A stretch of DNA of 64,000 nt from Oscillospiraceae bacterium (GTDB lineage Bacteria > Bacillota > Clostridia > Oscillospirales > Oscillospiraceae): the NCBI GenBank assembly GCA_017430455.1, contig JAFRMX010000010.1:40777-104776 (forward strand), in the 5' to 3' direction. Position 1 is the stretch's first letter. Each line of letters starts with the position of its first letter. Of the stretch, positions 1,855-63,749 are shown piece by piece. Both the position numbers and the translations under genes were made by a program. Under the pieces are notes generated by a model that had not been told where the DNA came from, did no database searches, and saw only the letters and a program-made list of their open reading frames with translations.

Positions 1855-1937
1855 TTCCCTTTCTATAAAAAACATCATACTTTACAACAAATGATATGCA
1901 GACTCCTCGTAGCAGGATACGAAGTGCCTGTTTTTTA

Positions 1938-2157
1938 CGTGTCATAATATGGCACGAAGATGATTTTTAAAACCATTGGTATTATTGGGTTATGACGGGT
2001 ATGACACGTATGACGCGTATGACGCGTAGATAGACATATGTGATTATCCGCAGTTTTTAGGTGTGTTCAAGTACGTGTCATTCCCGTCATACGTGTCATA
2101 AACCGTTGAAAATACAGGATTCCTTGATGACATGTCTCTCTTGCTTATGACACGTAT
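1938..2157 (+). repeat. Word-array element R1. Private word TATGACRCGTA / TACGYGTCATA.
   Basis: Hairpin CGTGTCAT-AAT-ATGGCACG (1938-1956). Four direct copies of TATGACNNG (1991-2028). About 43 bp of core. Three reverse-complement copies (2072-2100). Further copies at 2126-2136 and 2146-2156. Confidence 0.85.
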
Positions 2158-2375
2158 ATTATATTCTCCCAAAAGGCGCTCTGCATTTTTGAGACGGAAT
2201 AAACTCCGGTACCGCATATCGGGTACCGAAGATGTAATGATTTATTCGATCGCGAGGACAGTTGAGATATGAAGCGATGTAAACTGAAGTTTATCGAATT
2301 TTTTTCTTTATTTTTCACGGGTATGTGATAAACTGATATATTATTGATCGGGGATATCCCGTCCGGCAGGAGAAT

Positions 2376-9175: not shown

Positions 9176-9655
9176 TAACACATTGTTGCAGATAAAGAAA
9201 GCTGTCCGATGCATACGGACAGCCCCCTTTGTCGGACGGTACGGAAACTAAAGCTCAGCGGTTCACATTGCTCCCTGTCTTCTCGATCCTTGCAACCGAA
9301 TATATCTTTACATTTCCGGGGTAAAACAGGGCATGACAGATGCCTTGTTTTCCTGTCATGTCAGGTCGACCTGTCATTAAGTGATATGTTTTTTCGGACG
9401 ACAAATATGACAGTTTGGACAGGGGTGACAGCACAGAAAAGCAGCTGTCACCCGTCAAACCGTTGGGCTGCAATGGCGGGTGACAGGTGACAGCTGAAAT
9501 GTGATATAGCCCAAGCTGTCATCAGATAATAATACGATAAAAAAGGTGACAGCAGCGATTCTGCTGTCACCCTGTCATCAATCCGGTGTTTTCAATGCTT
9601 TGAGCGGTGACAGCATGATTTTCAAGCTGTCACCGTCTATTATGCTGTCATCAGG
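9176..9655 (-). repeat. Word-array element R2 (composite). Private word GGTGACAGC / GCTGTCACC, with degenerate ATGACAG and GCTGTCCG variants.
   Basis: Hairpins at 9201-9223, 9332-9360, 9423-9453, 9545-9571 and 9605-9635. Direct doublet GGGTGACAGGTGACAGC at 9478-9494. Extra copies at 9371, 9407, 9515, 9572 and 9644. Orientation was assigned from the scaffold motif AAAGCATTG on the minus strand. Confidence 0.85.
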
Positions 9656-9749
9656 TTCATCGGAAGTAATAATCCATAGAATAAGCATTTGCCCAAAATC
9701 GTCTGTTTTGACGGATTAATCAGCCGCCTTTTTCATCGTTACTCTTTAA

Positions 9750-10961
9750 TTATGAGATACTGTATTCTTTCCCCATAATATTGATTTGAACGACTTTAGT
9801 AATATCAATCGTGCCCGGCCATTCGGTGAATAAAATCGTAGCATCCCCCTCAAAATCGACCAACGGTGATCTTACCATTGTGATTGTACTGCCATCCTCA
9901 AATGTGAGATACGCGCTGCTCATAAGCTCATCGTAGAAGCCGTACCATCCAACAGGATTTGCACACATATCATCATGGCTAAGTCTCCATTCCGCGCAAT
10001 TTGCTGACAGGCGCACACTCAAAACTTTGCAACGACCGCCGGTACTCTCGTTGTACAGAACGATAGGCGATGTAAAATTCACTGAAGCAAAAACTGTTTC
10101 CACGCCTCGCAAAATTGAAGTCCCGTAATCATGAGAGTAAACCGGATCACCGAGTTCAAATGCAGTCGGGTTTTCTGTCACGTGATAATCTTCTCCGGGG
10201 ATTCGCATAGATTCAAAATCTAAACAGCGGACGGAAAAATACACCGGCATGGAGAAGTCCACATTATTCCTGCTGACATAGCTTTGAAGCATAAGGCTTT
10301 GAGTTTCTGCATCGTAACAGCGCGACATGATGACAGCTTTTGTTTGTTCCGGGTCTATTGCAGTAGTGGTTATTGCTGCTTCTTTCATATCTGTATCCGC
10401 AGCCAGCATGATCATTGCTGGGTCAGCGAAGTTCTTTGAAAAATCCTTACCTCTCTCGGAATCGTTCAACCAGTAGGCTTCTGGGATAGGTTTATTGCTG
10501 GCAAGACTTACAAAAGCAGTCACGAAGCTGTCATATATATAACTGTGGGCTTCTTCCTCCGTTACAGGCGCAACGCTGAAATAGACAAGCTGATTCTCTC
10601 CCTGCTGGATTGAGGAGATCAGTTGAATATGTGGGACTACGTCAGAAGCTGCCGTTTTATTGGCTTGTCCTGTTCTTGCATCAGCTTCGGTGTATTCTGT
10701 ATAACCCTCCACGGAGTTGCTTTCAATCTGTAAGGCGGCTTTCAATTCCATCTGGCGCCTTTGATTAATTGTGTACCCAACGGCGCAGGCAGTCAAAAGT
10801 GCGGCTATGATTGCCGCGACCAAAACCATACGCCATATTTTCCTATTTCTATGCCGCTGATGAGACTGATCATCAAGAAGGTGCAATACTTTGATTGTAT
10901 CTATAACACTTTCTTCCCCCATTTCCCCCACAGCACACAAAAGGGCGATAGAATCTAGCAT
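9750..10961 (-). CDS. Putative anti-sigma factor / single-pass membrane protein
   Basis: 403 aa. A short cytoplasmic N-terminus is followed by the TM segment WRMVLVAAIIAALLTACAVGY. The start overlaps the sigma-factor stop. Visibly lower GC than its surroundings. Confidence 0.6.
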   Translation of the reverse strand: MLDSIALLCAVGEMGEESVIDTIKVLHLLDDQSHQRHRNRKIWRMVLVAAIIAALLTACAVGYTINQRRQMELKAALQIESNSVEGYTEYTEADARTGQANKTAASDVVPHIQLISSIQQGENQLVYFSVAPVTEEEAHSYIYDSFVTAFVSLASNKPIPEAYWLNDSERGKDFSKNFADPAMIMLAADTDMKEAAITTTAIDPEQTKAVIMSRCYDAETQSLMLQSYVSRNNVDFSMPVYFSVRCLDFESMRIPGEDYHVTENPTAFELGDPVYSHDYGTSILRGVETVFASVNFTSPIVLYNESTGGRCKVLSVRLSANCAEWRLSHDDMCANPVGWYGFYDELMSSAYLTFEDGSTITMVRSPLVDFEGDATILFTEWPGTIDITKVVQINIMGKEYSIS

Positions 10962-11512
10962 AAGCCTTCCTCCTGTAAATATGTGCGAAGTTTGTTTCTT
11001 GTCCGATAGAGTGTTGTTTTCGTCTTGCTCTGGCTACAGCCCATGCGTTCTGAAATCTCAGCAATAGGGATTAAGAACCAGTATCGGGCTATAAACATTC
11101 TCCTTTCTGTGTCCGACAGGCCGCGCACGAAAGCGTTAACTACGGATTCCAATTCCTTTTGTTCGACCTCTTGGGCTGGATCTGCAGGAGAAGAAATACA
11201 ATCTTCCAACTCGTCCAAGGCAAGGGGCATCTCACCTCCGCCACGTTTCCGAGCCTTCCTTGCCTTAAATCGGTCAATGGCTAAATTTCGTGTGATGTAT
11301 CCCAAGAACGTCGAGAGAATAGGAGGCCGCTTGTCCGGCATGGAGTTCCATGCACTGAACCACGTGTCATTTACACATTCCTCCGCATCTTCACCATCCG
11401 CGCAAATGTTATAAGCGATAGTATAACAATATTTGCCATACTTGCGGTCTGTCTCGGATATTGCCTGTTCAGAACGCTGCCAGTACAGATCAACAATCGA
11501 TGAATCTTCCAT
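10955..11512 (-). CDS. ECF-type sigma-70 family RNA polymerase sigma factor
   Basis: 185 aa. Region 2 (EDAEECVNDTWFSAW) and region 4 HTH (IAEISERMGCSQSKTKTTLYRTRNKL). Confidence 0.85.
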   Translation of the reverse strand: MEDSSIVDLYWQRSEQAISETDRKYGKYCYTIAYNICADGEDAEECVNDTWFSAWNSMPDKRPPILSTFLGYITRNLAIDRFKARKARKRGGGEMPLALDELEDCISSPADPAQEVEQKELESVVNAFVRGLSDTERRMFIARYWFLIPIAEISERMGCSQSKTKTTLYRTRNKLRTYLQEEGLC

Positions 11513-11570
11513 ACTGATCCTCCTTGTTAAAGTGCTCTCAACCGTATATTACGAATATAATCAATATTGG

Positions 11571-11786
11571 TCACAAAAAAGTAATTCTTTTCGGATTTTG
11601 CGATGTTTCTTTTACAATCACTATCGGAGTTTCAGGATTTAGTCTCTTTGAGATTGCTTTAAAATGTTGCTTGTATGTGCTTAGCGTTTTTACTTTCACA
11701 CCTTTTGCTGCGGTGGCAGCAACAAACTGTTCAAACACTTCTTCCAATGTCATCTGATTAGCGTTCTGCATTTTTATTTTTTTCAT
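11571..11786 (-). pseudogene. Fragment of a tyrosine recombinase/integrase (N-terminal core-binding region only)
   Basis: 71-aa ORF. TLEEVFEQFVAATAAKGVKVKTLSTYKQHFKAISKRL resembles the SAM-like N-domain of phage-type integrases. No catalytic domain follows. It lies about 100 bp from tRNA-Ala. Confidence 0.5.
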
Positions 11787-11891
11787 AAAAAATACACCTC
11801 TTGTTTAACTGATTTTTCCAGAAAAAACAAGCGGTATAAAACCACATAGTAATAAACATAAAAGCCCTGAAACCATTGAGTTTCAAGGCTC

Positions 11892-11967
<76 letters not shown>

Positions 11968-28705: not shown

Positions 28706-28824
28706 ATGGGGCATTTGCCTGAAAAAGCATCTGAATTGTCTCAGAAGTTAAAACCAAATAAGCTTGTTTTCTTATCGGACTTAAAGTATAATGTCCAAAG
28801 TTTCAGTATCGAGGTTCAAATCAA

Positions 28825-30015
28825 GTGAAGAGCAGAAAAAGAAAAAACAAAACTCCCGTTATCGTCGAAAGCATTCTGTTTGTGCTGATGCTTGCGGCAA
28901 CGGTCTTCATAGTCAGAGAAAGAGGCTACACTCCGGAAACTCCCGCCGTAACACCCTCTCCGGTGATCACGGCTTCTCCGATTCCCGAGGTGACTCCTAC
29001 GCCTGAGATCACCCCTTCTCCGACTCCGGAGCCCGAACCCGAATATTTTACGTTCTCGTTCATTGGAGACTGCACCATCTGCTCCCACCAGAAGACGACG
29101 GATTATGAGGACAAAATGAATGGCGACTACAGCTATCCGTTCAAAAACACCGTCTCGTATTTCGAATCCGACGATCTCACTGTGGCAAATCTCGAATGCA
29201 CTATATCTGAAAAAGTGAGATGGTCAGCAGATACCTTCTATTTCCAGACGAAACCGGAGGCGCTGAATATCTTCCTGGAAGGCGGAGTGGATTTTGTGAC
29301 GACCGCCAACAACCATATGGACGATTTCGGCCAGGACGGAGCTGATGACACATACGCCTCACTCGAACAATTCGGTATCCCTTACGGCAAAGAAAATGAA
29401 GCTCAGATCATAACGGTCGGTGACGATCTCAAGGTCGGCATCTACTGTGCAGGAACAGACCTGGCACCTTCACAGAGTAAAGCCATCGAAGGAATAGAAA
29501 GCCTTAAAGAGCAGGGAGCAGATTATATAATCTGTGCCTTCCATTGGGGTCAGGAGCTCCAGTATACGCCTTCCCAGAGCCAGGTTGATCTTGCCCACGC
29601 TTCAATCGATGCCGGAGCGGATGTCGTATACGGAAGCCATCCTCATGTCCTCCAGCCTATTGAAGAATACGGCGACGGGCTGATCCTGTACAGTATGAGC
29701 AACTGGACCTTTGGCGGCAGCACATCACCGAGCGATGCCGACACCGCAATAGTGCAGGTGAAGGTAAAGAGAGATATCGACGGAAGCATTTCTACAGACG
29801 GATTTGATGTCATCCCCTGCGGAGTCAGCAGCAATATGGACGGGATCATTCAGCACGATACAAGTAAAGGCTATTATTACAACGACTACTGTCCCACACC
29901 CTATGAAGAAGATTTCAAGCACTTTGACCTCGTCATGCAGAAGCTTTCGGGAGAATTTGAAGGAAGCCTACAGGTCGACTACACCGGCTGGTACGCATCT
30001 TATGCAGACGGCTGA
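28825..30015 (+). CDS. CapA-family (PGA_cap) metallophosphatase-like protein, membrane anchored
   Basis: GTG start, N-terminal TM segment, Pro/Thr-rich linker, then FSFIGD...ANLE...TTANNH...HWG motifs. Confidence 0.8.
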   Translation: MKSRKRKNKTPVIVESILFVLMLAATVFIVRERGYTPETPAVTPSPVITASPIPEVTPTPEITPSPTPEPEPEYFTFSFIGDCTICSHQKTTDYEDKMNGDYSYPFKNTVSYFESDDLTVANLECTISEKVRWSADTFYFQTKPEALNIFLEGGVDFVTTANNHMDDFGQDGADDTYASLEQFGIPYGKENEAQIITVGDDLKVGIYCAGTDLAPSQSKAIEGIESLKEQGADYIICAFHWGQELQYTPSQSQVDLAHASIDAGADVVYGSHPHVLQPIEEYGDGLILYSMSNWTFGGSTSPSDADTAIVQVKVKRDIDGSISTDGFDVIPCGVSSNMDGIIQHDTSKGYYYNDYCPTPYEEDFKHFDLVMQKLSGEFEGSLQVDYTGWYASYADG

Positions 30016-30040
30016 GATTTTTAAGTAAATACGTAAATAT

Positions 30041-30071
30041 AAAACAAGCGTCCGATAAAGACGCTTGTTTT
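30041..30071. terminator. Bidirectional terminator hairpin
   Basis: AAAACAAGCGTC-CGATAAA-GACGCTTGTTTT between convergent genes. Confidence 0.8.
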
Positions 30072-30083
30072 ATTCTGTCTGAA

Positions 30084-32021
30084 TTATTCAAGTTCAAAAG
30101 CTCCCGTATAGAGTTGGTAATAAGCGCCCTTCTGGGCGACCAGATCCTCGTGGTTGCCGCGTTCGATGATCCTGCCGTGGTCAAGCACCATGATAGCCTC
30201 GCTGTCTCTGACCGTCGAGAGCCTGTGAGCTATAACGAAAACGGTCCTGCCCTTCATAAGGCTGTCCATACCCTTCTGGACCAGAGCCTCGGTGCGGGTG
30301 TCTATGGAAGAGGTCGCCTCGTCGAGGATCATGACAGGCGGGTCTGCGACTGCCGCCCTTGCAATGGAAATAAGCTGTCTCTGGCCCTGGGAGAGATTTG
30401 AGCCGTTTGAACTGAGCATCGTATCGTAGCCTTCCGGAAGGCGGGTTATGAAATCATGGGCATTGGCAAGCTTTGCAGCTTCAATACACTCCTCATCGGT
30501 CGCGTCAAGCTTTCCGTAGCGTATGTTGTCCATAACGGTACCTGTAAACAAGTTCACATCCTGAAGGACTATGCCGAGAGATCGTCTCAGATCGGGTTTC
30601 TTTATCTTGTTTATGTTTATTCCGTCATATCTTATCTTTCCGTCTTCTATGTCGTAAAAGCGGTTGATAAGGTTTGTTATCGTTGTCTTTCCGGCTCCGG
30701 TCGCTCCGACAAAAGCAATCTTCTGCCCCGGCTCCGCCCAAAGGGTTATATCGTGAAGCACGGGTTTGCCTTCTTCATAGGCAAAATCCACATTGAACAG
30801 CCTTACATCTCCCTTGAGCTCAGTATATGTCAGAGTCCCGTCACCATGGGGATGCTTCCATGCCCAGAGGCCTGTGTGCTCGCTGCACTCGGACAGCTCC
30901 CCGTTTTCATCTCTCTTTGCATTGACCAGCGTAACATAGCCGTCATCTTTTTCAGGCTCTTCATCCATAAGCTCAAATATTCTGCCAGCGCCTGCAAGAG
31001 CCATAACAACAGACGAAAACTGCTGAGCGATGTTGTTGACGTTGCCCGTGAACTGTTTGCAGATATTGAGGAAAGAAACGATTACGGATACGGATATGAC
31101 CGCGCCGAAGGTTCCGTTGAGCAATCCGCCCAATGACCAGTTGTGAAGCCCTGCAGTTATCATAAATCCGCCCGTTATGGCAACAAGTACATAGAGCAGA
31201 TTTCCCACGTTCATGACCATTGGCCCCATAATGTTGCCGAAACGGCCGGCGTTCTGCGTGTCCGAGAAGAGCTTTTCATTATACACGTCAAACTCTTCCA
31301 AGCTCTTTTCTTCATGGTTAAAGACCTTGACCACTTTCTGCCCGTTCATCAGTTCCTCGACATATGCTTCAAGTTTGCCGAGCGACTGCTGCCTCTTGAC
31401 AAAGTATCTCGCGCTCCTGCCGCCGATCGTTTTCGTAATGACGACCATCAATATGATTCCCAGGAAGACTATTAGCATCATGTTGATGCTGTAATAGAGC
31501 ATGATAAATACCAATGCCAGAAGTATCACGGAAGACTGGACCATCTGAGGAACAGTTTCCGATATAAGCTGCCTTAAAGTGTCGATATCGTTCGTATAAT
31601 GGCTCATGATATCACCGTGTCCATTGACATCGAAGTACTTTATCGGCAGATCCTGCATCTTGTCGAACATGCGGTTTCTCATTTTGTCAAGAAACCCCTG
31701 TGTGACAGTCGCCATGGTAAGACCTTTCACAAGCGCAGCCGTGAGCCCGAGTAGCATGACCGTTCCCATTATAGCGACCAGTCTTATTACCTGAGGCCTT
31801 ACTGCAGGCCACGCGCCTTTTCCAAGGCTGAGTCCTGATTCAATTATATCCGTGATGTTTTTAAGCAGTACCGCAGGCATAACGCCCGAAATGCCGTTAA
31901 CTATCAGGCATATACAGACTATAAGAAACTGCCACTTATAATCCGCAAAAAGAAGCTTAATAAGCCTTCCGAAGGTCCCCTTCTTGGCTCCGGGCATCTT
32001 TTTTTCAGGCATCTTCTTCAC
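30084..32021 (-). CDS. ABC exporter, fused permease/ATPase (heterodimer partner 2)
   Basis: Six TM segments plus an NBD with Walker A GATGAGKTT, signature LSQGQRQ and Walker B ILDEATS. Confidence 0.9.
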   Translation of the reverse strand: MKKMPEKKMPGAKKGTFGRLIKLLFADYKWQFLIVCICLIVNGISGVMPAVLLKNITDIIESGLSLGKGAWPAVRPQVIRLVAIMGTVMLLGLTAALVKGLTMATVTQGFLDKMRNRMFDKMQDLPIKYFDVNGHGDIMSHYTNDIDTLRQLISETVPQMVQSSVILLALVFIMLYYSINMMLIVFLGIILMVVITKTIGGRSARYFVKRQQSLGKLEAYVEELMNGQKVVKVFNHEEKSLEEFDVYNEKLFSDTQNAGRFGNIMGPMVMNVGNLLYVLVAITGGFMITAGLHNWSLGGLLNGTFGAVISVSVIVSFLNICKQFTGNVNNIAQQFSSVVMALAGAGRIFELMDEEPEKDDGYVTLVNAKRDENGELSECSEHTGLWAWKHPHGDGTLTYTELKGDVRLFNVDFAYEEGKPVLHDITLWAEPGQKIAFVGATGAGKTTITNLINRFYDIEDGKIRYDGININKIKKPDLRRSLGIVLQDVNLFTGTVMDNIRYGKLDATDEECIEAAKLANAHDFITRLPEGYDTMLSSNGSNLSQGQRQLISIARAAVADPPVMILDEATSSIDTRTEALVQKGMDSLMKGRTVFVIAHRLSTVRDSEAIMVLDHGRIIERGNHEDLVAQKGAYYQLYTGAFELE

Positions 32022-55450: not shown

Positions 55451-56353
55451 TTGACAAGATATTTCCTGTCCGATTATCTCAAAGATACATTCGGAACAAA
55501 AGTATATAAGCTCTCGCTCCAGAGCGGCTGTACCTGCCCCAACAGAGACGGTACTCTTGGTTTCGGAGGCTGCAGCTTCTGTTCGGAGGGCGGTTCGGGC
55601 GACTTCGCCTCACCGCTTCTGCCTGTAAGAGACCAGATAGAAGCAGCAAAAAAGCTTGTTGATGCCAAATTTCCGCGCAGAATATCTGAAAGTGACAGGA
55701 AATATATAGCCTATTTTCAATCTTTTACCAATACATACGGCGATACCGAAAAGCTTTGCGCTCTTTATGAAGAAGCCCTCTCGTTTCCGGAAATTGCAGC
55801 ATTATCGGTCGCCACCAGGCCGGACTGCTTATCGGATGAAGTGCTCTTTAGACTCTCTGAGATGAACAGGACAAAACCGGTCTGGATCGAACTCGGACTG
55901 CAAACATCCGATGACAAGACTGCTGAAAGGATTAACAGATGCTATAAGACAGAAGTTTTTGGAGAATGCTGGAAAAGGCTGAAATCCGCGGGACTTGAAG
56001 GTATAGTACATATTATTCTCGGCCTGCCGGGTGAATCCGAAGCGGAAATGCTTGAAACAGCAGGCTATCTTGCCCGGCTCGACCCGCCCCCGGACGGAAT
56101 CAAAATATCAAATCTTCAGATCCTTAAAGGTACAAAGCTCGGAGAAGAATACCTGAAGAAACCCTTTAATCTGCTATCTCTGGACGAATACGCGGAGCTT
56201 GTCTGCAAGTGCCTCGATATCCTGCCTGAGACGACGGTCATACACCGGATAACCGGAGACCCTCCGAAAAAGATCCTGATCGCGCCCGCTTGGTGCGCGG
56301 ACAAGAAAACCGTAATTAATACTCTTAACAAAAAGCTAAACCGCTTCAGCTGA
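55451..56353 (+). CDS. TIGR01212-family radical SAM protein
   Basis: TTG start. CPNRDGTLGFGGCSFC cluster motif and a family-typical N-terminus (YKLSLQSGCTCPNRDG). Confidence 0.85.
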   Translation: MTRYFLSDYLKDTFGTKVYKLSLQSGCTCPNRDGTLGFGGCSFCSEGGSGDFASPLLPVRDQIEAAKKLVDAKFPRRISESDRKYIAYFQSFTNTYGDTEKLCALYEEALSFPEIAALSVATRPDCLSDEVLFRLSEMNRTKPVWIELGLQTSDDKTAERINRCYKTEVFGECWKRLKSAGLEGIVHIILGLPGESEAEMLETAGYLARLDPPPDGIKISNLQILKGTKLGEEYLKKPFNLLSLDEYAELVCKCLDILPETTVIHRITGDPPKKILIAPAWCADKKTVINTLNKKLNRFS

Positions 56354-56370
56354 TGCCAAAGCGGTTTTTT
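56338..56370 (+). terminator. Rho-independent terminator overlapping the stop codon
   Basis: AAACCGCTT...AAGCGGTTTTTT. Confidence 0.75.
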
Positions 56371-56501
56371 GTCGCATTTTTGTAAGCAGACTATAGATTA
56401 TGATTATCAGAAGAAGAAATATGAACGTCTGCTGAATCTCAACAATTCGGAAGAAGATACTTTTGAAAATATAATTGAATAAATGAGATGAAATTATCAG
56501 T

Positions 56502-56718
56502 GTAGACAGGTCCATAAAAAGGACCTGTCTACCTTTAAAGCATTGGTATTACTGCAACGGAGACAGGTAGACAGGTCAGACACGTACATTCAGCATTTTC
56601 TATCCGATTTTTATTATCTTTAGCCGGGATATGTATGCATATCACCTGTCTACCTGTCTACAGACATTGAAAACAGAGGAATTGAGAGTAGACAGGTCGC
56701 AAATAGTGACCTGTCTAC
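56502..56718 (+). repeat. Word-array element R3. Private word GTAGACAGGT / ACCTGTCTAC.
   Basis: Hairpin at 56502-56532. Direct doublet AGACAGGTAGACAGGT at 56561-56576. 67-bp AT-rich core. Exact inverted doublet at 56644-56659. Hairpin at 56688-56718. Confidence 0.9.
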
Positions 56719-56757
56719 CCTGAAGATATCATTATCATTAAAGTATATTATCTGCTG

Positions 56758-57813
56758 TTATTCTATCCTGAAAAGCTTCTTTCCGGGAACGCCCGCGCGG
56801 TAGGCATCGACTGCTTTTTCGAAATCATGCAATGCATAGGTCCCGCCGATGATAACTGACGCGTCAAAGTAAGGAGAACGCATGACTTTCGCGAAATTGT
56901 CCCAGGTCTCCCAGATCCTTCTTCCACAGACTCCGGTTATCTCGACCTCCCGGTAATAAACGTCATTTGTCAGATCCAGACCCACTTCACCGCTCGGGAA
57001 TCCGACACCCACAAGTCTTCCGCCGTTTTTCAGCGCTTTTATTCCGTTCACGATTGCAGGCGGTGCTCCCGTAACGTCTATGGCTGCATCAACTCCGAGT
57101 CCTCCGGTCAAGTCTCTGCAGAATGAGATAATATCCGTTTCCGAGCTGTTTACCGTTATATCTGCCCCCATCTTCTCTGCATCCTTCAGGCGCTCCGGAA
57201 GGATATCACAGGCAATGACTTTCTCTGCTCCGAAGGTCTTAGCACCTGCTATAACTGTCAGCCCTATCGCTCCGCATCCGCTGACAAGCACGTTTTTCCC
57301 TTCGACCTCCGCTTTCTCGACTCCGCGGATCCCCGATCCCATCGGCTCGAAAAGGCAGCCCACATCGTCAGAGATATCGTCGGTAAGTTTATATGTGATC
57401 TTTTCCGGAGCTGCGACATATTCGGCAAATGCCCCGTCTCTTCCGACGCCAAACAGAGACATATTCATACACATGTTGGATTTACCGCTTAAGCACATCG
57501 GGCATTTTCCGCAGGGTATATGCGACTCGAAAGCGACTCTGTCCCCCGGTTTTCTGTCTTTCACGTTTTTACCGGCAAGCACTACCTCTCCGCATGCCTC
57601 ATGTCCCATTATTACAGGCGGCTTTACCCAGATCCGGGACCATTTGTCCCAGTCGATTATGTGGATATCCGTACCGCACAAAGCCGCTCTGTTTACTTTT
57701 ACCAGAACCTCATCATCTTTCGGCTCGGGAATGGGGAGATCGTCATGCCAGACCGGAGCACACGTTCCCTTCTGTTCTTTTTTCAGACCGAACATCGTAT
57801 CAGACATAATCAT
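56758..57813 (-). CDS. tdh: Zinc-dependent medium-chain dehydrogenase, L-threonine 3-dehydrogenase-like
   Basis: 351 aa. CGTDIHIIDWDKW...GHEACGEV zinc motif and the GCGAIGL Rossmann motif. A butanediol/sorbitol-dehydrogenase function cannot be excluded. Confidence 0.75.
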   Translation of the reverse strand: MIMSDTMFGLKKEQKGTCAPVWHDDLPIPEPKDDEVLVKVNRAALCGTDIHIIDWDKWSRIWVKPPVIMGHEACGEVVLAGKNVKDRKPGDRVAFESHIPCGKCPMCLSGKSNMCMNMSLFGVGRDGAFAEYVAAPEKITYKLTDDISDDVGCLFEPMGSGIRGVEKAEVEGKNVLVSGCGAIGLTVIAGAKTFGAEKVIACDILPERLKDAEKMGADITVNSSETDIISFCRDLTGGLGVDAAIDVTGAPPAIVNGIKALKNGGRLVGVGFPSGEVGLDLTNDVYYREVEITGVCGRRIWETWDNFAKVMRSPYFDASVIIGGTYALHDFEKAVDAYRAGVPGKKLFRIE

Positions 57814-57822
57814 GCCTCTTTC

Positions 57823-58536
57823 TCATCTTTTTCTGCCGTATGCCATATAACTCGCGGGAAACGGAAATATCAGGAGCGCGACTGCAATTATTATCGGAAC
57901 CGCCGGGATATCCTGCATAAGCATTACGCTGTAAATAAGAATCAGACCCGAAACCATGAAACAGATGCCTGCCAGGTCGTTTGTGCCTTTTCTTGCCGTC
58001 TCGCTGCGGGACATGTATTTGAAATTAAATGACAGCGCTGCATCTTTCTTGCAGTCAAACAGATATCCGCCTGCGTAAATCAATATAATCCCTGTAATGC
58101 ACGCTGTTTTAAAAGCTCCCGGCATGCTCTGACTCGCGACTCTCGGCATGGCCCAAACACAAAAGAAAAATCCAAGGACAGGGATTATCCATCGGCCAAG
58201 CAGCCTTACAGGTGCAGGAGGGAGTTTGGACAGGCGCTGGTGAATGTACAGCTGCACATGGCAGATGGCATTCAGGACAAAAAAGAGTCCCGGGATCATA
58301 TATATGAAGGCCCATCTTGGGAGAGAATCGTCGTTTCCGGCAAGATCCGTAAGCCCTGTTGTTATGATCTCCGGAATAGCGCTTTTAAGCCTGAGCCCCA
58401 GGAATATCGGAGCAACCGAAATCAGTGAGGTAACAACAAAAAGAAGAATTGCCTTTTCTTTCGACACATGTTTTCCGAAGAAGGATGCTGCCCTGATCTC
58501 ATCACTTCGGGAAAGAGCATTTTTTTTACTGCTCAT
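57823..58536 (-). CDS. Integral membrane protein, unknown function
   Basis: 237 aa, about 6 TM segments. The stop is 10 nt from the tdh-like start. Confidence 0.6.
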   Translation of the reverse strand: MSSKKNALSRSDEIRAASFFGKHVSKEKAILLFVVTSLISVAPIFLGLRLKSAIPEIITTGLTDLAGNDDSLPRWAFIYMIPGLFFVLNAICHVQLYIHQRLSKLPPAPVRLLGRWIIPVLGFFFCVWAMPRVASQSMPGAFKTACITGIILIYAGGYLFDCKKDAALSFNFKYMSRSETARKGTNDLAGICFMVSGLILIYSVMLMQDIPAVPIIIAVALLIFPFPASYMAYGRKR

Positions 58537-58643
58537 ACGCAGCCCGCCTTTTTTAGATTTTTTAAATTATAGCAATTAATTGCAGGCTTGTAAATAAACA
58601 GAGCCTGCAGAACGGATCTGCAGGCTCCTGTTTTGAAACACGG

Positions 58644-60359
58644 TTATTTCTTTTTGTTCGGAATATGTATTGCTCTTCCTTCTGCCGCCATAACGCACTC
58701 TGAGAGCGCTTCGGAAACAGTGGGATGACAATGTATGGTCCCGATAATCTCATCGGCTGTCGCCTCAAGCTTTATAGCAAGGGCAGCCTCTTCAATGATC
58801 TCGGTCGCACCGGAGGCGAGCATATGAACGCCAAGGATCTCGCCGTATCTGGAACCGACAAGGACTTTTACGAGTCCGTCGGTCTCACCAACGGCAAGAC
58901 TTCTGCCGTTCGCGCTGGTTGGGAACTTTCCGACCTTGTAATCAAGCCCGAGCTCCTTTGCTTTATCCTCGGTAAAGCCGACGCCCGCGATCTCGGGGCC
59001 TATATAGGCGCAGGAGGGGCTTGAGGAGACATCAAATGTCCTGCAAAGACCCATAGCGTTTTCGGCTGCGATCTCACCCATCGCGATCGCGGCATGGGCG
59101 TACATCATCTTGCCTGTAACGTCACCTATCGCATATACTCCGGGGACATTCGTCTCGAGCCGGTCATTGACCTGTATGAAGCCTTTGTCTGCCTTGATTC
59201 CAGCAGCCTCAAGGCCGAGAGCAGCGCTGTCCGCTCCTCTTCCGACACACACCAGGACCTTCTCCGCTTCAAATTCCTTCTCGCCGTCTTCGGTACCAAC
59301 TTTGACAAGCGCTCCTTTTTCGGTCTCCTCAACAGATTTTACTTCGGCTGAAGTAAGAATATCAAGGCCGTCTTTTCTGAGCTTTGCAAGCAGCATGCCT
59401 GTAAGTTCGCTGTCCATACCGGGCAGTATACCGGGCATTTTCTCCACCACGGTCACCTTCGCGCCGTATCTGGAGTAAACGGTTCCGAGCTCAAGACCTA
59501 CGACTCCGGCGCCTATAACAACCAGACTTTCCGGAATATGATCAAGCGAAAGGCACGCTGTGGAATCTATGCAGGCCTTATTATCTTTGACTCCCGGGAT
59601 GCCCGGGATTATCGGATATGAGCCTGCAGCTATTATTATCTTGTCTGCAGTGTATGTTTCGCCGTTTGCCTTTACTGTCTTGGGTCCGACAAATGATGCT
59701 TCTCCGGCTACAACTTTTATCTTATTTGCCTTGCAGAGTGCCTTTACACCGGATGTGAGCTTCTCAACAACACTTGCCCTGTATGCCTGGACCTTCTCCC
59801 AATCGACCGAGACGTCGTTTCCGACTATTCCTATGTCAGCCGAACCTGTCGCTTTTGCGTAGATTTCACTTGTGTGCAGCATCGCCTTGGTCGGGATACA
59901 TCCGCGATTTAAGCATGTCCCTCCGACTTCAGCTTTTTCAAACAGAGTAACCTTCGCGCCGAGCTGAGCCGCTCTTATAGCAGCCACATATCCGCCGGGA
60001 CCGGCGCCTATTACCAGAACAGTACCTGCTGCCGGAGCTTTCTCTTCCGCCTTGGGAGCTGCTGCCTCGGCCGGAGCTTCAGCTTTCTCTGCGGCGGGAG
60101 CTGCTTCGGGAACACTCTCACCTGCAGCCCCGAGCCAGCCTATAACTTCTTTGCAAGGGGCATCATCGCCATCTTTTACGAGGATCTTGAGCAGGATCCC
60201 GTCTTCCTCGGCTTCAATATCGTTTGTAAGCTTATCCGTTGCAACCGAGAAAAGGATCTCGCCTTTTTTGACCTCATCGCCCTCTTTTTTCTTCCATTCT
60301 TCTATAGTTCCTTCGGTCATCGTAAGGCCGAGTTTGGGCATCAGTATTGCAGTTGCCAT
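58644..60359 (-). CDS. Dihydrolipoyl dehydrogenase (E3) with a fused N-terminal lipoyl domain
   Basis: Lipoyl motif SVATDKLTNDIEA, Ala/Pro linker, GAGPGGY FAD motif, redox disulfide GGTCLNRGCIPTK, C-terminal HCHPTVSE. Confidence 0.9.
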   Translation of the reverse strand: MATAILMPKLGLTMTEGTIEEWKKKEGDEVKKGEILFSVATDKLTNDIEAEEDGILLKILVKDGDDAPCKEVIGWLGAAGESVPEAAPAAEKAEAPAEAAAPKAEEKAPAAGTVLVIGAGPGGYVAAIRAAQLGAKVTLFEKAEVGGTCLNRGCIPTKAMLHTSEIYAKATGSADIGIVGNDVSVDWEKVQAYRASVVEKLTSGVKALCKANKIKVVAGEASFVGPKTVKANGETYTADKIIIAAGSYPIIPGIPGVKDNKACIDSTACLSLDHIPESLVVIGAGVVGLELGTVYSRYGAKVTVVEKMPGILPGMDSELTGMLLAKLRKDGLDILTSAEVKSVEETEKGALVKVGTEDGEKEFEAEKVLVCVGRGADSAALGLEAAGIKADKGFIQVNDRLETNVPGVYAIGDVTGKMMYAHAAIAMGEIAAENAMGLCRTFDVSSSPSCAYIGPEIAGVGFTEDKAKELGLDYKVGKFPTSANGRSLAVGETDGLVKVLVGSRYGEILGVHMLASGATEIIEEAALAIKLEATADEIIGTIHCHPTVSEALSECVMAAEGRAIHIPNKKK

Positions 60360-60372
60360 GTTTTTTGCCTCC

Positions 60373-61704
60373 TTAAGCCAACATCAGAGCAGGATTTTCC
60401 AGCAGATTCTTCACCCTCTGAAGGAATTCCGCCGCCGTGGCTCCGTCTATGATACGGTGGTCGGCCGTGAGTGACAGCGTCATCATCGGGCGGATCACTA
60501 TCTCGCCGTTTCTCACCACAGCCTTGTCCTCCATGGTCGTGAGACCAAGGATCGCGACTTCGGGCTGGTTGATGATCGGAGTGAAGCTGTCGATACCGTA
60601 CATTCCGAGGTTCGTGATCGTGAATGTACCGCCCTTCAAAGCCTCCATCGGGAGCTTGCCGGACCTCGCCTGCTCGGCAAAGGTCTTTACCTCATCATGG
60701 ATCTCGGTCAGGCTCTTCTTGTCACAGTCTTTGATATTCGGAACGAGAAGTCCGTCATCGATCGCAACAGCAACGCCCATATTGACATAGTGTTTCAGGA
60801 TGATGCTGTTTCCGTCAACCGATGCGTTGAGTATCGGGAACTCGGTCAGCGCCTTGGCTACGAATTTGACAACAAGATCGTTGTAGCTGACCTTGATCTC
60901 TTTCGCTTTCAGCATCTCCCTGTATTTCTTCATCTCGGACATGTCAACGGCAAGGTTGAATGTAACCGTCGGGGAGGTCTGTACCGAAGCGAGCATGTTT
61001 TTGGCTATGGCCTTGCGCATGCCGCTCATCTTCTTTACTTCCTCGAGAGGATTGGAAGGAACTTCCTCTTCCGCTTTTTCGCGTGTCTCCTCAAGATACG
61101 CGTATATATCCTCAGCGAGAACTCTGCCGCAGTGGCGGCCCTTTACCGATGCCAGATCTATGCCGATATCGGAAGCAACTTTTTCAGCCAGAGGAGAAGC
61201 CTTTACTTCGTTTGCAGGCGCTTTCATAACTGCTGCGGGAACATAGGAAAGAACATCTTTTGATGTCACATAACCTCTCGCGCCGCTTGCAGGTACAAGA
61301 CCCAGATCTATTCCCTTTTCCTTAGCAAGCTTTCTTGCATAAGGCATGGCAGGAATGAATCCGCCTTCAGCCTTAACAGAAACTGCTGCCTGTTCCGGGG
61401 CGAAAGCTTCTGTTTCGGGAGTTGCCTGTACTGCAGGTGTTTCTCCGTCTCCGGGGACAACCTCACCGGGAGCACCTATCCAGGCTATGACTGCCTTGCA
61501 TGGAGCATCCTCGCCTTCACCCACCAGGATCTTCAGAAGCACACCGTCTGCCTCGGCTTCAATATCATTTGTAAGCTTGTCTGTCGCGACAGAGAAAAGG
61601 ATCTCTCCTTTTTTTACCTCATCGCCTTCTTTTTTCTTCCATTCTTCGATGGTGCCTTCGGTCATCGTAAGGCCGAGTTTAGGCATTAACACTTTTTCAG
61701 CCAT
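60373..61704 (-). CDS. Dihydrolipoamide acyltransferase (E2)
   Basis: Lipoyl domain, peripheral subunit-binding domain (ARKLAKEKGIDL), and a catalytic domain with DHRIIDGA. Confidence 0.9.
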   Translation of the reverse strand: MAEKVLMPKLGLTMTEGTIEEWKKKEGDEVKKGEILFSVATDKLTNDIEAEADGVLLKILVGEGEDAPCKAVIAWIGAPGEVVPGDGETPAVQATPETEAFAPEQAAVSVKAEGGFIPAMPYARKLAKEKGIDLGLVPASGARGYVTSKDVLSYVPAAVMKAPANEVKASPLAEKVASDIGIDLASVKGRHCGRVLAEDIYAYLEETREKAEEEVPSNPLEEVKKMSGMRKAIAKNMLASVQTSPTVTFNLAVDMSEMKKYREMLKAKEIKVSYNDLVVKFVAKALTEFPILNASVDGNSIILKHYVNMGVAVAIDDGLLVPNIKDCDKKSLTEIHDEVKTFAEQARSGKLPMEALKGGTFTITNLGMYGIDSFTPIINQPEVAILGLTTMEDKAVVRNGEIVIRPMMTLSLTADHRIIDGATAAEFLQRVKNLLENPALMLA

Positions 61705-61727
61705 CGTACTCTCCTTTCATTCAGAAC

Positions 61728-62702
61728 TCAAAGAACACCCTTGATTCCGTTTACGAGATCCTCCGGGTAGACCCTGTACATCTTCTCAAGTGTGGGTGCA
61801 AACGGTATCGGAGTGAACGGGGCGCCATAGCGGAGAACGGGAGCGTCAAGATACTCGAGCGCCTCCTCGGCGACCGTTGCCGCGACTTCAGCAAGAGCGC
61901 CGCCCTGCTTAACGGACTCGGCAACCAGGCAGAGTCTGTGTGTTTTCTTTACGGAATTTATTACGGTCTCTTTGTCCCACGGAGAGAGAGTGATAAGATC
62001 TATTACTTCTGCCTTGATTCCATCTTTCTCAAGAAGATCTGCAGCAGCTCTGGCGTTCTTCATACCTATGGAGTATGAGACGATTGTCACGTCAGTGCCT
62101 TCACGCTCAACTCTCGCCTTGCCTATCACATAGGGGACCTCATCTTCCTTCTCTGGAACCTCACCGGTCTCCTTGTAGAGGACCTTGTTCTCGAAGTAGA
62201 GGACCGGGTCGTCACACTCAATGGCGGCTTTAAGGACCATCTTCGCGTCATAGGGGTTCGACGGGGCAACAACTTTTATACCCGGAATGTGGATAAAGAA
62301 ACTCTCAAGGCTCTGGCTGTGCTGGGCGGCTCCGCCTCCGGCCATTCCGTCGGGAGCGCGCAGAACAAGAGGAATCTTCGCCTGGCCGCCGAACATGTAA
62401 CGGATCTTTGCCATCTGGTTTATGATCTCGTCTCCGCAGACTCCTATGAAGTCCGCAAAGTGCATGTCAACAACGGGTCTGGCTCCGGCAAGCGCGGCTC
62501 CGACGCCTCCTCCGACTATGAAGGTCTCGGAGATCGGAGTGTCGATAACTCTGCCGGGGAACTCATCGGGAAGGCCCTTGAACTGGCCGAAAATACCGCC
62601 CTGGCGGGCAATGTCTTCGCCCATTACGAACACTTCCGGGTATTTCTCCATTTCTTCGGCCATGGCCTCGCGTGTAGCTTCTGAAAATGTAATTTTACGC
62701 AT
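61728..62702 (-). CDS. 2-oxoacid (acetoin/pyruvate-type) dehydrogenase E1 beta subunit
   Basis: MRKITFSEATREAMAEEM... is typical of the E1-beta N-terminus. The start was chosen 9 nt after the GAGGAGG RBS. Confidence 0.9.
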   Translation of the reverse strand: MRKITFSEATREAMAEEMEKYPEVFVMGEDIARQGGIFGQFKGLPDEFPGRVIDTPISETFIVGGGVGAALAGARPVVDMHFADFIGVCGDEIINQMAKIRYMFGGQAKIPLVLRAPDGMAGGGAAQHSQSLESFFIHIPGIKVVAPSNPYDAKMVLKAAIECDDPVLYFENKVLYKETGEVPEKEDEVPYVIGKARVEREGTDVTIVSYSIGMKNARAAADLLEKDGIKAEVIDLITLSPWDKETVINSVKKTHRLCLVAESVKQGGALAEVAATVAEEALEYLDAPVLRYGAPFTPIPFAPTLEKMYRVYPEDLVNGIKGVL

Positions 62703-62716
62703 TGTCATTCTCCTCC

Positions 62717-63688
62717 TCAATCGACATAGACATCGGTAATGTATTCCGAAGGATCGGGGTACTCGCAGCTGACTGCGTACTCCTTGGCCTTTTTGATCTT
62801 TTCGACGGCGTCCGCTCTGATCTGATCGAGCTCGGCCTGTTCGAAGCTTATGCCCTCCGGAAGGATCCCAAGGAAGTGGGTCAGAGGATCCGTGTCGTGG
62901 AAGATCTGCATCGTCTCTTCCTTTTTGCGGTATTTCTCCGGGTCGCCCACGAAGTGGCCTTCGATGCGGTATGTCTTTGCCTCGATGAATGTCGGGCCCT
63001 CGCCCCTGCGTGCGCGCGCTACAGCCTCAACTGCCGCATCATAGACCTCGAATACGTTCTGTCCGTTGACTACGACACCGGGCATGTTGTAGCCCTTCGC
63101 GCGGTCGGAGATGTTCTCGACTGCTGTTGTCGTGCGGTACGGGGTCGTGGATGCCCAGCAGTTCATCTCGTTTACGAATATGACCGGCAGTTTCCAGGCA
63201 GCTGCCACGTTTGCGGCCTCATGGAAGGTTCCGCGGTTTGAAGCGCCGTCTCCGAAGAACACTACCGATACCCTGTCGTTCTTCAAAACCATCTTGCTCG
63301 CCAGAGCAGCGCCGGTCGCAAGGTTGTAGCCTCCGCCGACAACGCCGTTCGCCCCCAGCATGCCGATCTTGAAGTCCGCAATATGCATACTTCCGCCTTT
63401 GCCGTGGCATAGGCCTTCTTTCTTTCCGAAGATCTCAGCCATCATCGCGTTGACATCCGCGCCCTTCGCGATGCAGTGGCCGTGCCCTCTGTGCGTGCTC
63501 TCGATCATATCATCGTCTCTCAGAGCCGCACAGATACCTGTTCCGATCGCTTCCTCACCTATATAGAGGTGGACAAAGCCCGGGATCTCACCGGCCAGAA
63601 AATCTCTCTTTACGGACTCTTCAAAGGCGCGGATCGTCGCCATGGTCTCGTAAAATTTTCTGGCCTGTTCTTTTGTGACTGTTGCCAT
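62717..63688 (-). CDS. 2-oxoacid (acetoin/pyruvate-type) dehydrogenase E1 alpha subunit, TPP-dependent
   Basis: TPP motif region GDGASNRGTFHEAANVAA...VNEMN. The start is at the ATG after the AAGGAG RBS (MATVTKEQ...). Confidence 0.9.
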   Translation of the reverse strand: MATVTKEQARKFYETMATIRAFEESVKRDFLAGEIPGFVHLYIGEEAIGTGICAALRDDDMIESTHRGHGHCIAKGADVNAMMAEIFGKKEGLCHGKGGSMHIADFKIGMLGANGVVGGGYNLATGAALASKMVLKNDRVSVVFFGDGASNRGTFHEAANVAAAWKLPVIFVNEMNCWASTTPYRTTTAVENISDRAKGYNMPGVVVNGQNVFEVYDAAVEAVARARRGEGPTFIEAKTYRIEGHFVGDPEKYRKKEETMQIFHDTDPLTHFLGILPEGISFEQAELDQIRADAVEKIKKAKEYAVSCEYPDPSEYITDVYVD

Positions 63689-63749
63689 AAAAACCACTCC
63701 TTACTTCTGTTTATATAAATTTAAATTGATTTCGAATCCGATCCGGGCA

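Follow-up and report, generated by a model that had tools for sequence, protein, structure and literature searches.

A probable orphan origin-like iteron array of a helicase-linked family in an Oscillospiraceae bacterium

Described origins of similar design

The replication origins of Staphylococcus aureus pathogenicity islands (SaPIs) contain 6–12 short iterons located immediately downstream of the rep ORF; the centre of such an origin is AT-rich and is flanked on either side by two or more iterons, the two sides running in opposite directions (PMC9371898). These iterons are recognised by a helicase that loads itself, probably as two hexamers, and that binds them with a winged-helix domain at its C-terminus, and the SaPI Rep protein has similarities to SF3 and SF6 helicases (PMC9371898). 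The locus described here, R3, is a block of short repeat units within a 64-kb stretch of Oscillospiraceae DNA (the window, to which all positions refer unless a contig is named), and it shares with the SaPI origins two opposed iteron sets around an AT-rich centre, its eight units falling within the SaPI range of 6–12. Its relatives on other contigs, termed native arrays below, are also SaPI-like in following directly after a helicase ORF, in having units specific to each element, in residing on an integrative island and perhaps in being accompanied by a helicase with a predicted C-terminal winged-helix-like module. They are unlike SaPI origins in that the linked helicase is an SF4 RepA/DnaB-like protein (AAA_25) and not of the SaPI Rep lineage, in their units of 8–9 bp with a TGAC/GAC core (5–6 bp in SaPIs), and in that the arrays can overlap the coding end of the helicase and possess extra outer unit pairs and conserved scaffolds. 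R3 itself, again unlike a SaPI origin, is detached from any helicase.

Origins of iteron plasmids are composed of direct repeats of ~17–22 bp on one side of an unwinding element, next to the initiator gene, while the initiators, of the RepA_N or Rep_3 type, are dedicated proteins which recruit the host helicase. The arrays described here differ in consisting of two inverted sets of 8–9-bp units and in having a helicase as the sole associated replication protein; no Rep_3 or RepA_N gene was found with them, and they do not qualify as plasmid-type oriV. Vibrio PLE, Salmonella SGI1 and iteron plasmids have an island- or plasmid-borne initiator gene beside an iteron cluster and an AT-rich unwinding element (PMC7145576, PMC7433901), an arrangement which the native arrays resemble. 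MITEs and REP/BIME repeats offer a further comparison, which the arrays resemble in being short, multi-copy, palindrome-rich, intergenic, strain-variable and assembly-breaking. They are unlike these repeats in lacking terminal inverted repeats with target duplications and a RAYT or transposase partner, in that the R3 unit occurs nowhere else in the 64 kb, and in that native members of the family are linked to the coding sequence of a helicase.

That R3 is homologous to and collinear with the native helicase-linked arrays, and is an orphan among them, can be stated with high confidence. The full statement, that R3 is an orphan origin-like iteron array of this family, including the origin function suggested by analogy with SaPIs, is considered probable. 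The family appears to be undescribed so far and may be viewed, on the same analogy, as a variant of the SaPI-type origin design with a different helicase superfamily.

Anatomy of R3, its alleles and its sister elements

R3 lies between the 3′ ends of two convergent genes, a radical-SAM gene (55451–56353, + strand) and a Zn-ADH gene (56758–57813, − strand), as the initial annotation had recorded. The same annotation counted eight copies of one 10-mer; seven copies of GTAGACAGGT are exact, and the eighth, GGAGACAGGT at 56559, carries one mismatch. In the 64-kb window AGACAGGT occurs eight times, always inside 56504–56716, against a chance expectation of 1.2, and none of 100 shuffles reached eight. 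The repeat units are arranged around a dyad centre at 56610, with four units on each side of the core and the two sides oppositely oriented, where the SaPI description has two or more per side.

The array and its parts are assigned to the minus strand, the core being without strand. Its distal end is an outer unit pair (56502–56532), GTAGACAGGTCC-7 nt-GGACCTGTCTAC, forming a hairpin with 12-bp arms and a 7-nt loop, and its proximal end a second outer pair (56688–56718), GTAGACAGGTC-9 nt-GACCTGTCTAC, with 11-bp exact arms (17 nt at 88%). Both terminal hairpins had been reported, and in each the two 10-mers lie 11 nt apart. Further inwards are the tandem units, two copies on either side with an 8-nt period: the distal set (56561–56576) reads AGACAGGTAGACAGGT on the plus strand and faces the proximal set (56644–56661), which reads ACCTGTCTACCTGTCTAC on that strand. 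They account for the 16-bp exact inverted repeat, 56561–56576 and 56644–56659, which was likewise borne out, as was the AT-rich character of the 67-bp core that it encloses (56577–56643; 36% GC compared with ~50% for the window). The core is a candidate DNA-unwinding region.

The near-perfect symmetry claimed for the element applies to the repeat units but not to the spacers between them, which are conserved scaffolds in direct orientation. The distal scaffold (56533–56560) reads CTTTAAAGCATTGGTATTACTGCAACGG on the plus strand and is kept in the sister elements R1 and R2 and in native arrays (..AATACCAATGSTTT..), while the proximal one (56662–56687) reads ..CTCAATTCCTCTGTTTTCAATGTCTG in reverse complement and has the native-array counterpart ..GAATCTTGTGTTTTCAACGG... 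As the inter-unit spacers are related sequences in the same orientation, R3 has polarity. At the position of its proximal outer pair, intact relatives encode part of the helicase C-terminus, namely the wing of the predicted winged-helix-like module. The adjoining stretch (56719–56750, − strand) is possibly a remnant of a helicase 3′ coding end, of at most ~10 codons, as suggested by the weak similarity of ..NDNDIFRV.. to the native ..EEYKIRV...

Several open reading frames at the locus were considered separately. The ADH stop codon is followed by a same-frame open stretch, QQIIYFNDNDIFRVDRSLFATCLLSIPLFSMSVDR (56653–56760, − strand), which matches the helicase-tail frame of native arrays and is probably a coincidence. 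Two mirrored 30-aa ORFs diverge from the core near the radical-SAM gene, at 56497–56589 (−, MYVSDLSTCL..) and 56631–56723 (+, MYAYHLSTCL..); they are unlikely to be genes and are a by-product of the dyad symmetry. A peptide repeat was also rejected, the units being read in different frames and orientations. Beyond the array, the ADH gene ends an operon-like run (57823–63697, −) containing genes for a 237-aa conserved protein with no Pfam match and for 2-oxoacid dehydrogenase E3 and E2, and in related contigs the gene just beyond E2 encodes a 324-aa product with transketolase-type (E1-like) domains; the run looks like an acetoin/butanediol-type cluster.

The locus was recovered from many rumen and gut metagenomes by exact-protein look-up. 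Three contigs (L011–L013) are identical to the window at R3 and together with it make four assemblies with the R3 allele, all in one orientation. Ten other contigs (L001–L010) and the GTDB species representative, Ruminococcaceae bacterium RUG14730, carry a different allele, in which 56367–56750 (384 bp) is replaced by a 424-bp R2-like array of the same build with TGACAGC units. Flanks are ~96% identical between strains up to 56366 and again from 56751, 310 bp of the replacement segment are 92% identical to R2 (9322–9632), and both alleles point the same way with respect to the ADH gene. Because the 384-bp segment is exchanged in other strains R3 is a separable unit, and in this sense its earlier description as autonomous is partly right, although the mechanistic reading attached to that word is not supported. 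The view that R3 is not simply an operator for a neighbouring promoter is borne out as well. The strain-variable unit is larger than first reported, extending over 56367–56750 (− strand, from the comparison of flanks) and not only over 56502–56718. In a scan of the genome collection with the radical-SAM protein, an array was present at the site only in the same species (RUG14730), and relatives in that collection at ≤61% radical-SAM identity had none at the corresponding site.

Two further blocks of the same type, R1 and R2, were found in the window by scanning both strands for locally over-represented 7-mers. R1 (1916–2194, − strand; repeat block ~1936–2157) is an orphan with TATGACRSG units of 9-nt period, four facing three, and R2 (9322–9632, + strand; repeat block ~9420–9650) is an orphan with GGTGACAGC units; each lies between co-directional genes. 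The three elements have a common build, unit sequences of their own and scaffolds in the same order (..TTTTCAAYG.. and ..AATACCAATGSTTT..), and the arrays of L001–L010, L195 and L198 display the part order of R3 together with its two conserved scaffolds. When R3 was left out of the training set, the resulting nhmmer profile still recovered it on the minus strand, as predicted, with E=8.3e-5, as the sole window match besides the training copies, while a profile from two native copies only finds R1, R2 and R3, the last with E=5.7e-3. With three elements in 64 kb, the family occupies five distinct sites in the species.

R2 is located inside a 2,647-bp strain-specific insertion (9207–11853) next to tRNA-Ala (11892–11967), where most other strains have ~15 bp instead. 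The insertion carries genes for a 403-aa protein and an ECF sigma factor, as well as a 71-aa ORF (11571–11786), which was rejected as an integrase fragment (no Pfam match; BLASTP E=6). Between two orphan copies, substitutions number 4/160 inside units and 39/420 outside (p=0.004). This slower evolution of the units is consistent with function; the constraint may date from before the copies lost their link to a helicase. The units of R3 are perfectly preserved.

Native arrays at the 3′ ends of helicase genes

The native setting of the arrays is the 3′ end of a RepA/DnaB-like (AAA_25, SF4) helicase gene on small integrative mobile elements in Firmicutes of the gut and rumen. R1 keeps a remnant of the helicase C-terminus, the last ~14 codons (tblastn E=1e-10), and in other strains the full-length gene behind this remnant encodes a 428-aa AAA_25 protein. 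In contig L198 a WYL regulator gene (−) is followed by the helicase gene (+), a complete R1-type array and a hairpin, and the part comprising the last ~50 helicase codons and the array (L198 3121–3390) has 89.6% identity with R1 at window 1916–2194. The same WYL–helicase–array module, at least 3.1 kb long and with ATGACGAYA units, is present in L195 (GCA_017427095.1), in which chromosomal DNA begins ~60–85 bp beyond the array. Since this downstream flank is 99.7% identical to window 28749–30272, the window strain represents the empty site there. The empty site is at window ~28730–28749, upstream of 28825–30015, and TAAAACCrAATAAGCTTG, which is common to both at the junction, may be the attachment core. 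The genomic context of a homologue of the WYL protein (P0124) was unrelated and contained no helicase. A low-coverage contig of 2.7 kb (L050) also joins R1 to a full helicase gene and is possibly an assembly chimera across the repeat; it was not relied on, the equivalent native arrangement being seen in L198.

Arrays lie directly downstream of the helicase in L195, L198, L199 and L053–L056. In native copies the stop codon of the helicase falls within the core or just before the array, and the proximal arm codes for the helicase C-terminus; in L053 and L054 the arm encodes the tail and stop codon, and both contigs end inside the array. Metagenome contigs often end in this manner (L053 and L054; also L047, L048 and L051), and from their repeated termination inside arrays it follows that the family breaks short-read assemblies.

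More distant helicases (~40–48% identity; L055, L056, L199) are found on integrative mobilizable elements next to guaA, with the gene order HTH, small ORF, tyrosine integrase, NikA-like, helicase, Mob_Pre relaxase and cargo. On these contigs, and on the virome fragments L283 and L284, the helicase gene is flanked by integrase/NikA-like genes and the Mob_Pre relaxase gene. Directly 3′ of the stop codon are two to three 9-nt units, a spacer of ~28–33 nt and inverted units. A strict exact-match test was applied to the 74 helicase loci with enough downstream sequence: convergent exact tandem arrays occurred at 35 of these 74 helicase 3′ ends, whereas of 915 control windows taken from these loci 2 had one. 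The 35 include many closely related loci, not 35 independent events, and represent at least eight unit types. As the degenerate arrays of L055 and L056 are missed by the exact test, the proportion is an underestimate. Native units nearly always contain TGAC, with GAC invariant, the AGAC of R3 being an outlier. The helicase is the only constant partner of the arrays. Plasmid and phage collections yielded few matches, none of them annotated, and two virome fragments that repeat the array rule and are not complete replicons.

The helicase matches Pfam AAA_25 (E=1e-25), PHROG primase/helicase families and, by sequence, the RSF1010 RepA structure in the PDB (1g8y), while the top Foldseek matches are Twinkle, DnaB, T7 gp4 and RepA, all SF4. 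Neither PADLOC nor NCBIfam recognised it, as a known defence protein or a named family respectively. In the AlphaFold model a confident C-terminal helix-strand-helix-helix-strand-strand module (residues 339–408) precedes a disordered tail; this order is the winged-helix order, and the module is thus predicted to be winged-helix-like. The wing and tail are encoded by the proximal arm of the array, which explains the conservation of one scaffold. Helicases P0001–P0003 are near-identical and differ mainly in the array-encoded tail; given that the variable residues in P0001–P0004 are array-encoded, co-variation between helicase and iterons is confounded.

No helicase gene was detected beside R3 by tblastn across the 64-kb window, so that R3, in contrast to SaPI origins, does not stand directly downstream of a rep gene. 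A protein search gave no candidate for a protein carrying the R3-encoded tail, and scans of viral contigs for the R3 hairpin and for the scaffold pattern gave no matches; the 16-mer had single-orientation matches only, except for one locus with two adjacent same-strand copies. A metagenome scan for GTAGACAGGTAGACAGGT returned at least 120 matches, none of which was the R3 locus or was close to a helicase gene; the matches belong to unrelated hairpins of octamer repeats in environmental samples. In these intergenic hairpins (L104 1696–1790, L148 1283–1376, L157 477–555, L127 1922–2054, L168 11296–11360 and ~20 more) a short loop separates tandem degenerate octamers, (GT[AT][AG]ACAGGT)n, from inverted ones, again with no helicase nearby. 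The octamer common to them and R3 is probably due to chance.

Interpretation of the arrays

The anatomy of the family matches that of the published SaPI origins, and for this reason its members are read as origins of that design. Each array would be the replication origin of its mobile element. Recognition of the 8–9-bp units would be the task of the winged-helix-like module at the C-terminus of the helicase; the helicase would assemble on both of the opposed unit sets, open the intervening AT-rich core and load itself, with no need of a separate initiator. The unit sequence particular to each element would constitute its Rep–origin specificity. R3 is most likely what remains of an integrated element after the loss of its genes, and without a helicase of matching specificity produced elsewhere in the cell it would be inert.

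Other functions would also account for clustered, inverted units of this kind. The arrays could be binding sites for different proteins, such as oriT accessory sites for a NikA-like/Mob_Pre relaxosome, an operator or a partition-type site, with R3 as the orphan of such a site. The guaA-integrated elements lend this some weight, placing the array between the helicase gene, itself preceded by a NikA-like gene, and the Mob_Pre relaxase gene, and ribbon-helix-helix accessory proteins are known to bind repeated sites. In L195, L198 and L053, however, which are modules of the species studied here, the array stands behind the helicase and neither a NikA-like nor a Mob gene can be seen. L055 and L199 have separate palindromes closer to the mob gene. 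That the array stays with the helicase when the NikA-like and Mob genes are absent weakens a transfer-origin or operator role, and this explanation is regarded as unlikely. A role as RNA, in which R3 is a structured transcript or a bidirectional terminator or stabiliser between convergent genes, receives still less credence. The single strand does fold into three strong hairpins (−45 kcal/mol, z=−8.6) between convergent genes, the ADH gene of which has no obvious terminator of its own, but a fold of this strength is a trivial consequence of the inverted repeats. The hairpins are without U-tracts, the radical-SAM gene is already terminated by its own hairpin at 56338–56372, and neither one unit shared by all hairpins nor direct tandem copies are needed by a terminator. 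Moreover, the position of R1 and R2 between co-directional genes speaks against such a role, the invariance of the GAC core across very distant arrays fits protein recognition and not free stem covariation, and no Rfam family exceeded its threshold in 55–58 kb (IS102, RF00124, scored 30 bits against a gathering score of 46).

The remaining explanations concern DNA rearrangement, both of which the initial annotation had raised by likening R3 to a miniature invertible switch or a two-ended recombinase or transposase substrate. In the former, an invertase would recombine the 16-bp inverted repeats and flip the 67-bp core. Exact repeats around a short AT-rich segment containing a −10-like TATTAT are what such a switch would offer; yet no recombinase gene lies within ~5 kb, the four assemblies with the R3 allele do not differ and show a single orientation (as far as assemblies report it), and a flipped promoter would have no target because the flanking genes converge on R3. 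In native copies the helicase stop codon lies inside the core or next to it, in a fixed orientation, and inversion of the core would disrupt the gene. With neither invertase, target gene nor orientation variant at hand, the switch is extremely improbable. The other proposal, in the form of a MITE-like non-autonomous element of ~300–400 bp whose repeats are bound by a transposase or recombinase and which moves as a unit, is improbable too, if less so. It would suit a multi-copy family with five sites in the species, the second locus holding an R2-like copy (92% identical), the different members at the R3 site in different strains, and the fact that no orphan extends more than a few dozen bp past its array. 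Against it, the comparison of sister strains that had been suggested for this purpose disclosed neither target-site duplication nor terminal inverted repeat at the junctions 56366/56367 and 56750/56751, nor any duplication at the R2 and L001 junctions, and no transposase or recombinase gene is near. No empty rSAM/ADH site was encountered among 14 contigs, and the autonomous relatives carry a helicase and no transposase. The native copy overlaps the helicase coding sequence and the orphan R1 keeps a fragment of it, which points to a remnant of deletion.

Remnants left by integrated elements remain the preferred account of the orphans, with one awkward aspect. Simple random decay of large elements does not readily account for three orphans in 64 kb, for two different family members at one site or for the cutting of each near its array, and movement as a unit, or selection acting on the orphans, is conceivable. 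That the orphans are working cis-elements kept by selection, not dead relics, or else origin-only hitchhikers spreading between sites, seems unlikely, and is hinted at by the intact units of R3, the conservation of units against faster spacers in two orphans, the density of orphans and the replacement of one member by another at a single site. Two versions of the working element are possible: chromosomal decoys which titrate the helicase of related incoming islands, giving an incompatibility-type immunity, or latent origins which fire in place when a matching helicase is available and amplify neighbouring genes.

At the R3 locus, a striking-looking element is largely explained, with the warning that palindromic blocks of this kind are not to be taken for switches or small RNAs. 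Reading the arrays as origins would also account for a group of strain-variable intergenic repeats at which metagenome assemblies break, and would provide in the array a simple marker for annotating such elements and their remnants. If the reading is true, an unannotated origin, recognisable from its sequence alone as two opposed sets of TGAC-core 8–9-bp units where the gene of a RepA-like helicase ends, would be present on many integrative mobilizable elements and “viral” contigs from Firmicutes of the gut and rumen, and the SaPI design of a self-loading helicase plus an iteron origin would be extended to a different helicase superfamily.
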